DNA of 64,000 bases from assembly GCF_044324785.1 (NCBI RefSeq), contig NZ_CP172127.1; one strand, 5' to 3'. The DNA comes from Escherichia coli. Lineage in GTDB: Bacteria; Pseudomonadota; Gammaproteobacteria; Enterobacterales; Enterobacteriaceae. How positions within the stretch are numbered: position 1 is the first letter of the stretch; every line of letters begins with the position of its first letter. Shown here piece by piece: positions 36,453 to 37,647 of the stretch. Made by a program: the position numbers and the translations under genes. The notes under the pieces were generated by a model. The model did not search any database, had not been told where the DNA came from, and saw only the letters and a list, made by a program, of their open reading frames with translations.

Positions 36453-37647
36453 GGAAGGTGCGAACAAGTTCCTGATATGAGATCATCATATTCATCCGGA
36501 GCGCATCCCAGAGGGACATCATGAGCCATCAACTCACCTTCGCCGATAGTGAATTCAGCACTAAGCGCCGTCAGACCCGAAAAGAGATTTTCCTCTCCCG
36601 CATGGAGCAGATTCTGCCATGGCAGAATATGACCGCTGTCATCGAGCCGTTTTATCCCAAGGCGGGCAATGGCCGACGGCCCTATCCGCTGGAGACCATG
36701 CTGCGTATTCACTGCATGCAGCATTGGTACAACCTGAGCGACGGTGCCATGGAAGATGCCCTGTACGAAATCGCCTCCATGCGCCTGTTTGCCCGATTAT
36801 CCCTGGATAGCGCCCTGCCGGATCGCACCACCATCATGAATTTCCGCCACCTGCTCGAGCAGCATCAACTGGCCCGTCAATTGTTCAAGACCATCAATCG
36901 CTGGCTGGCCGAAGCAGGCGTCATGATGACCCAAGGCACTTTGGTGGATGCCACCATCATTGAGGCACCCAGCTCTACCAAGAACAAAGAGCAGCAACGC
37001 GATCCGGAGATGCATCAGACCAAGAAAGGCAATCAGTGGCACTTTGGCATGAAGGCCCACATTGGTGTCGATGCCAAGAGTGGCCTGACCCACAGCCTAG
37101 TCACCACCGCGGCCAACGAGCATGACCTCAATCAGCTGGGTAATCTGCTTCATGGTGAGGAGCAATTTGTCTCAGCCGATGCCGGCTACCAAGGAGCGCC
37201 ACAGCGCGAGGAGCTGGCCGAGGTGGATGTGGACTGGCTGATCGCCGAGCGTCCCGGCAAGGTAAAAACCTTGAAGCAGCATCCGCGCAAGAACAAAACG
37301 GCCATCAACATCGAATACATGAAAGCCAGCATCCGTGCCAGGGTGGAGCACCCGTTTCGCATCATCAAGCGGCAGTTCGGCTTCGTGAAAGCCAGATACA
37401 AGGGGCTGCTGAAAAACGATAACCAACTGGCGATGTTATTCACCCTGGCCAACCTGTTTCGGGTGGACCAAATGATACGTCAGGGGAGAGATCTCAGTAA
37501 AAACCGGAAATAACGCCAGAAATGGTGGAAAAAATAGCCTAAATAGGCTGATTCGATGTGTTTGCGGGAAAAAAATCGGCCCAGATCCGCGAAATTTTAA
37601 TCAGCGAGTCTGCTTGGGAAGAAATGACCTGCTTATTCGCACCTTCC
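36453..37647 (+). mobile_element. IS5-family insertion sequence, complete (1195 bp) with terminal inverted repeats and 4-bp direct repeats
   Basis: Left end GGAAGGTGCGAACAAG at 36453-36468, right end CTTATTCGCACCTTCC at 37632-37647; AAAG at 36449-36452 and again at 37648-37651; encodes an InsH-like transposase. Confidence 0.93.
36521..37513 (+). CDS. insH: IS5 transposase InsH (variant with altered C-terminus)
   Basis: 330-aa [40 protein letters not shown]... matches my memory of K-12 InsH along its length except for a few substitutions and a different tail (…[18 protein letters not shown] versus the …QWERSH I recall). Confidence 0.93.

Follow-up and report, generated by a model that had tools for sequence, protein, structure and literature searches.

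The window analysed here is a stretch of 64,000 nucleotides of Escherichia coli DNA (contig NZ_CP172127.1 of assembly GCF_044324785.1). It contains a complete insertion sequence (IS) of 1195 bp, flanked on one side by a yaiT-like autotransporter gene and on the other by hemB, as annotated in the syntenic region. The autotransporter gene is intact. The IS lies 152 bp upstream of its start and ~350 bp upstream of hemB. Judged by the layout of its open reading frames, the window looks like a normal part of the E. coli core chromosome in the hemB region. Towards the right end, a 1024-aa ORF (59533–62607) and a 417-aa ORF (62659–63912) have lengths that would fit lacZ and lacY. Scans of positions 1–64000 detected neither a tRNA gene nor any Rfam family at its gathering threshold. 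Neither a second IS copy nor a second instance of the altered transposase tail described below was found in the window. The coordinates of all features are collected in Table 1.

Table 1 Features of the insertion sequence and its surroundings, in window coordinates.
Feature	Position	Strand	Basis
yaiT-like autotransporter gene, intact, 969 aa	33392–36301	-	ORF list and syntenic annotation
Target-site duplication AAAG, left copy, 4 bp	36449–36452	.	comparison with empty site
Complete IS5-family insertion sequence, ISKpn26 isoform, minus-one-T variant, 1195 bp	36453–37647	+	sequence identity
Left terminal inverted repeat, GGAAGGTGCGAACAAG	36453–36468	+	direct sequence reading
Transposase ORF, 330 aa	36521–37513	+	ORF list
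Missing T, CAG/GGG here versus CAGTGGG in ISKpn26 and K-12 IS5	37483–37484	+	alignment of six elements
Frame-shifted tail GRDLSKNRK, codons 322–330, and new TAA stop	37484–37513	+	codon table
Right terminal inverted repeat, CTTATTCGCACCTTCC	37632–37647	+	direct sequence reading
Target-site duplication AAAG, right copy, 4 bp	37648–37651	.	comparison with empty site
hemB	~37993–39000	+	syntenic annotation

When the right end is reverse-complemented, 15 of its 16 positions agree with the left end; K-12 IS5A and canonical ISKpn26 have these terminal ends too. An empty version of the site is present in E. coli SC418 (...ATATAAAGCACGTG), where AAAG occurs once. The empty site reconstructed from the window aligned without gaps over 500 bp, and the best match had 98.8% identity. 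The insertion at AAAG is thus clean, with a 4-bp duplication. Among complete RefSeq E. coli genomes, none carried an IS at this same site. With a DDE transposase, a length of ~1.2 kb, short inverted repeats and a 4-bp duplication, the element has the features of the IS5 family. Its target is not one of the YTAR sequences (CTAA, CTAG, TTAG, TTAA) preferred by this family. Family membership is unaffected, because YTAR is a preference and not a requirement. AAAG is atypical for an IS5-type element all the same; other copies of the variant and of wild-type ISKpn26 lie at TTAG, TTAA, CTAA, CTAG and CTAT.

A Pfam scan of the transposase identified an N-terminal DUF772 domain (residues 51–124, 3.8e-21) and a catalytic DDE_Tnp_1 domain (residues 138–312, 1.7e-35). 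The catalytic residues D143, D220, R272, E276 and K283, which make up the D, D, E triad and the R-x3-E-x6-K signature, were invariant across 41 aligned sequences. Near the 3' end of the gene one T is absent: the window reads CAG-GGGAGAG at the junction, versus CAGTGGGAGAG in K-12 IS5A and in two canonical ISKpn26 copies. The string CAGGGGAG marks the deletion form and CAGTGGGAG the T-containing form. Because both K-12 IS5 and canonical ISKpn26 have the T, we take the T-containing form to be ancestral.

The consequence for the protein can be read directly from the codons. The nine-residue tail GRDLSKNRK occupies positions 322–330 in place of WERSQ (322–326), the TAA at 37497–37499 is now out of frame, and the reading frame closes instead at the TAA at 37511–37513. 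The net charge of the tail changes from 0 to +3. Everything through Q321 is unaffected, including both domains, and the two inverted repeats are intact as well. When the T was restored in silico, the resulting 326-aa protein matched WP_000019445.1, the transposase of canonical ISKpn26, at every residue. The deletion, its effect on the protein and the structure of the element are near certain. They bear out the initial annotation, made from the letters alone, which had proposed that the C-terminal tail of InsH was altered by a single-base deletion that shifted the last codons. The interval it gave, 37470–37513, spans codons 317–331, and the K-12 tail that it quoted was also right: InsH1 of MG1655 IS5A ends ...FRADQMIRQWERSH (over a longer stretch, ...LANLFRADQMIRQWERSH).

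A scan for promoters and terminators around the element gave nothing above shuffled expectation, and the number of sigma-70-like sites near it was likewise not above shuffled expectation. One weak antisense sigma-70-like match (TTTACT-18 nt-TATCAT, 9/12, positions 37501–37472 on the minus strand) has the deletion site inside its spacer, which would be 19 nt long in canonical ISKpn26.

To identify the element we aligned it with E. coli copies that encode WP_000019445.1. Two copies of 1196 bp, whose product is named by PGAP 'IS5-like element ISKpn26 family transposase', served as canonical references. Over 1196 columns the window element differed from them at only 3–4 positions, namely the missing T and 2–3 SNPs: 37156 T/A, which is synonymous, 37611 T/A, which is non-coding, and 37099 A/G, which separates it from one of the copies only. 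Against K-12 IS5A we counted 110 nucleotide differences (~91% identity), most of them in the non-coding right end, so that the element is not near-identical to K-12 IS5. InsH1 differs from the canonical ISKpn26 protein at 6 of 326 residues. By convention, ISfinder groups elements as isoforms at ≥95% nucleotide and ≥98% amino-acid identity, and the window element falls within these limits for ISKpn26. On this alignment evidence it is a frameshift variant of ISKpn26 and not K-12 IS5. The name IS5, under which it had been described, holds for the family; the backbone is that of ISKpn26. Because of this backbone, the A-to-V difference (FRV/FRA), one of the six residues above, comes from the isoform and is independent of the frameshift.

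The initial annotation had allowed that the odd tail might match a catalogued isoform exactly, in which case only the quoted reference tail would be at fault. The ISfinder reference for ISKpn26, with length and ORF coordinates taken from PMC8796155, is 1196 bp long with one 326-aa ORF at 69–1049 (PMC8796155), an arrangement that the window element does not share. Since catalogued ISKpn26 ends in WERSQ, the altered tail is a genuine difference from the reference.

We then asked where in the protein the change falls. It starts at residue 322, ten residues past the end of the Pfam DDE_Tnp_1 match (312) and far downstream of D143, D220, R272, E276 and K283. Among 1.8 billion representative proteins searched, there were many full-length homologues with alignments that ended between residues 312 and 321. 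We aligned 38 of these homologues (36–58% identity). The segment after the conserved N311 varied from 7 to 21 residues among them, compared with 15 in the wild type and 19 in the variant. No sequence conservation was seen past about L319, and none of the 38 had a W at the position of W322. In an AlphaFold2 model of the wild-type protein (mean pLDDT 91.6), residues 296–325 form one long terminal helix, with values of ~88 at residues 321–326. Because the helix is confidently predicted through residue 325, the tail is not simply disordered. On this model, the frameshift would rewrite the last turn of the terminal helix and lengthen the helix. A subtle effect on multimerisation is conceivable, though any role of this helix in multimerisation is conjectural.

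The family is catalogued, and the variant itself is already present in public data with its exact protein on record. The 330-aa protein occurs on 730 contigs of a public protein collection, where it is again called 'IS5-like element ISKpn26 family transposase', and in 1251 gene-index blocks. In a similarity search, at least 38 complete E. coli records contained copies that matched the whole 1195-bp element with 100% identity; these copies were spread over many loci and had the same annotation. A 91-nt query across the tail, for which the search lists one place per record, matched 68 records exactly. A further 2364 records had the canonical form, with one additional base, and 302 belonged to a more distant class.

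To count the deletion form specifically, we used a 40-mer centred on the junction, so that megablast could seed only across it. It was found at 197 places in 67 records, belonging to 61 (~1%) of the 5426 complete genomes of E. coli; 189 of the places were chromosomal and 8 were on plasmids. These 197 copies make up ~3% of the 6111 ISKpn26-type tails that the 91-nt query detected. Genomes with the variant have a median of 2 deletion copies and a maximum of 16. The median for all IS5/ISKpn26-like places is likewise 2, and some genomes contain at least 40 copies of wild-type IS5/ISKpn26. The same 40-mer matched 17 plasmids in PLSDB, all from Escherichia, of which 10 were conjugative and 7 mobilisable; none of the non-Escherichia plasmids in PLSDB carried it. 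An origin of the deletion in Klebsiella finds no support in this distribution. The counts support the earlier suggestion of a lineage-specific variant and speak against a mutation private to the window. A T at 37156 accompanied the deletion in 13 of 13 deletion copies examined, and an A was present in 3 of 3 wild-type copies. Because this second marker was linked to the deletion in every copy examined, the comparison suggests a single origin of the deletion, followed by spread.

Several deletion copies carry target-site duplications of their own. In SMS-3-5 a copy in pagP is flanked by TTAG, and five other loci with the deletion form have duplications of TTAA, TTAA, CTAA, TTAG and CTAA. We also expressed deletion copies as a fraction of all IS5-like places on each chromosome; for XDL, LA3, MRSN346647 and KD0845 the survey covers the chromosome alone. 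The deletion form accounted for 16/16 places in PK8277, 15/16 in PK8217, 16/18 in S115, 14/15 in KD0845 and 8/9 in CFSAN061769. It accounted for every place in XDL, ET120 and PEC145 (4/4 each), MRSN346647 and LA3 (3/3 each) and SMS-3-5 (2/2). A survey of the whole SMS-3-5 chromosome and its four plasmids found no wild-type or other IS5-like DNA or protein; of the two deletion copies counted there, the one in pagP was located.

Two of the multi-copy genomes do contain the wild-type gene. The 306-kb plasmid of ET120 (CP101002) has an intact wild-type ISKpn26 transposase gene (WP_000019445.1) in a copy that matches the IS only up to position 1096 and has lost its right end. Judged by its sequence, this copy would be immobile, a potential donor of transposase alongside the four chromosomal deletion copies. 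PK8277 has a 1196-bp wild-type copy on plasmid CP080135. The plasmid gene in the one case and the plasmid copy in the other remove ET120 and PK8277 as examples of multi-copy genomes free of wild-type transposase.

Not all copies have intact surroundings. In PK8217 (CP080121), the 4 bp on either side differ for several deletion copies, with pairs such as TTAG/ATAA and ATAA/TTTT. This is the pattern expected when recombination between IS copies rearranges a chromosome after insertion. One further copy of the variant has a disrupted left end that adjoins another DDE transposase gene.

Taken together, these observations are consistent with the following course of events. One T was lost in codon 322 in a sub-lineage of ISKpn26, replacing WERSQ by GRDLSKNRK. 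With the N-terminal and catalytic domains and both ends of the element intact, the transposase would have kept its function; this exact variant has spread to many sites across E. coli chromosomes and plasmids. Tolerance of the new tail seems plausible because the change is confined to the last turn of the helix, the most variable part among homologues. We consider it probable (roughly 0.7) that the altered transposase is still functional and that the variant is an autonomous, roughly neutral isoform and not a dead copy.

The main alternative, which we regard as unlikely, is that the frameshift inactivates or cripples the transposase, leaving a non-autonomous 1195-bp element that is moved in trans by wild-type ISKpn26 or IS5, often from a plasmid. 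The lost residues do lie within a C-terminal helix that is predicted with confidence, the gene is a frameshifted pseudogene according to PGAP, and in ET120 and PK8277, where a wild-type gene co-occurs with the deletion copies, mobilisation in trans is possible for that reason. Against this, the altered residues are not conserved, and SMS-3-5 has two deletion copies but lacks a wild-type IS5-like gene on its chromosome and all four plasmids. Moreover, in PK8277/PK8217, S115 and KD0845 the deletion form represents 14–16 of 15–18 copies on the chromosome, with little or no amplification of the wild type. Such a skew is hard to explain by a wild-type helper, which should have multiplied its own element at least as well. 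In such transposases, for example that of IS903, cis preference is usual, so that the encoding element is favoured. The comparative data nonetheless cannot by themselves separate autonomous movement from movement in trans.

The new tail could also be more than neutral. Its more basic character (+3 versus 0) might confer a gain of function, such as a higher rate of transposition or a relaxed choice of target, behind the expansions to 14–16 copies in a few lineages. The altered tail charge, the chromosomes with up to 16 copies and the AAAG target in the window, as opposed to YTAR-type sites elsewhere, all point this way. We nevertheless think such a gain very improbable, given that the wild type can be present in 40 copies or more, that the median copy numbers are equal and that, of the seven insertions of the variant whose duplications are intact, six are at TTAG, TTAA or CTAA, which leaves a single unusual site as an anecdote. 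As for an error of sequencing or assembly in what would really be a canonical ISKpn26, no assembly error is more common than a single-base indel, and the 'frameshifted' flag of PGAP often marks such errors. The chance of this is negligible: the identical deletion recurs in 197 copies from 61 independent complete genomes, including the RefSeq reference of SMS-3-5 (NC_010498.1), and in 17 plasmids; it is linked to the second marker, T at 37156; and the lost T was flanked by G's, with no homopolymer run.

The preferred reading, that of a functional isoform, has some bearing on annotation. PGAP treats the variant inconsistently: identical DNA is called a 'frameshifted' pseudogene in SMS-3-5 and PK8277, and the same 330-aa product is a named MULTISPECIES protein. 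PGAP also annotates short 'hypothetical proteins' that run over the right boundary of the IS. If the variant is live, IS censuses that drop pseudogenes would undercount active ISKpn26 in ~1% of E. coli genomes. ISKpn26 is clinically relevant as a disruptor of genes, mgrB-linked colistin resistance of Klebsiella being one example, and evidence that a tail variant stays mobile would be mildly useful in this context. Specialists are unlikely to be surprised by it, and the annotation inconsistency is the only useful by-product.

Compared with known elements, the variant stands closest to ISKpn26. The two share their backbone, their inverted repeats, an ORF start at position 69 and identical residues 1–321; they differ in that the window element is 1195 bp long, with an ORF at 69–1061 (330 aa) and the tail GRDLSKNRK instead of WERSQ. 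K-12 IS5 (IS5A, insH1) is alike in family, organisation and terminal repeats, but it keeps the T and ends in WERSH. The length of 1195 bp that it shares with the window element is a coincidence, the result of other indels. A more remote parallel is offered by Tn5 (IS50, IS4 family), whose transposase is also a DDE chain ending in a helix. That C-terminal helix contributes to dimerisation through contacts in the synaptic complex. Tn5 belongs to a different, only distantly related family, and the ISKpn26 helix compared with it here is that of a predicted model.
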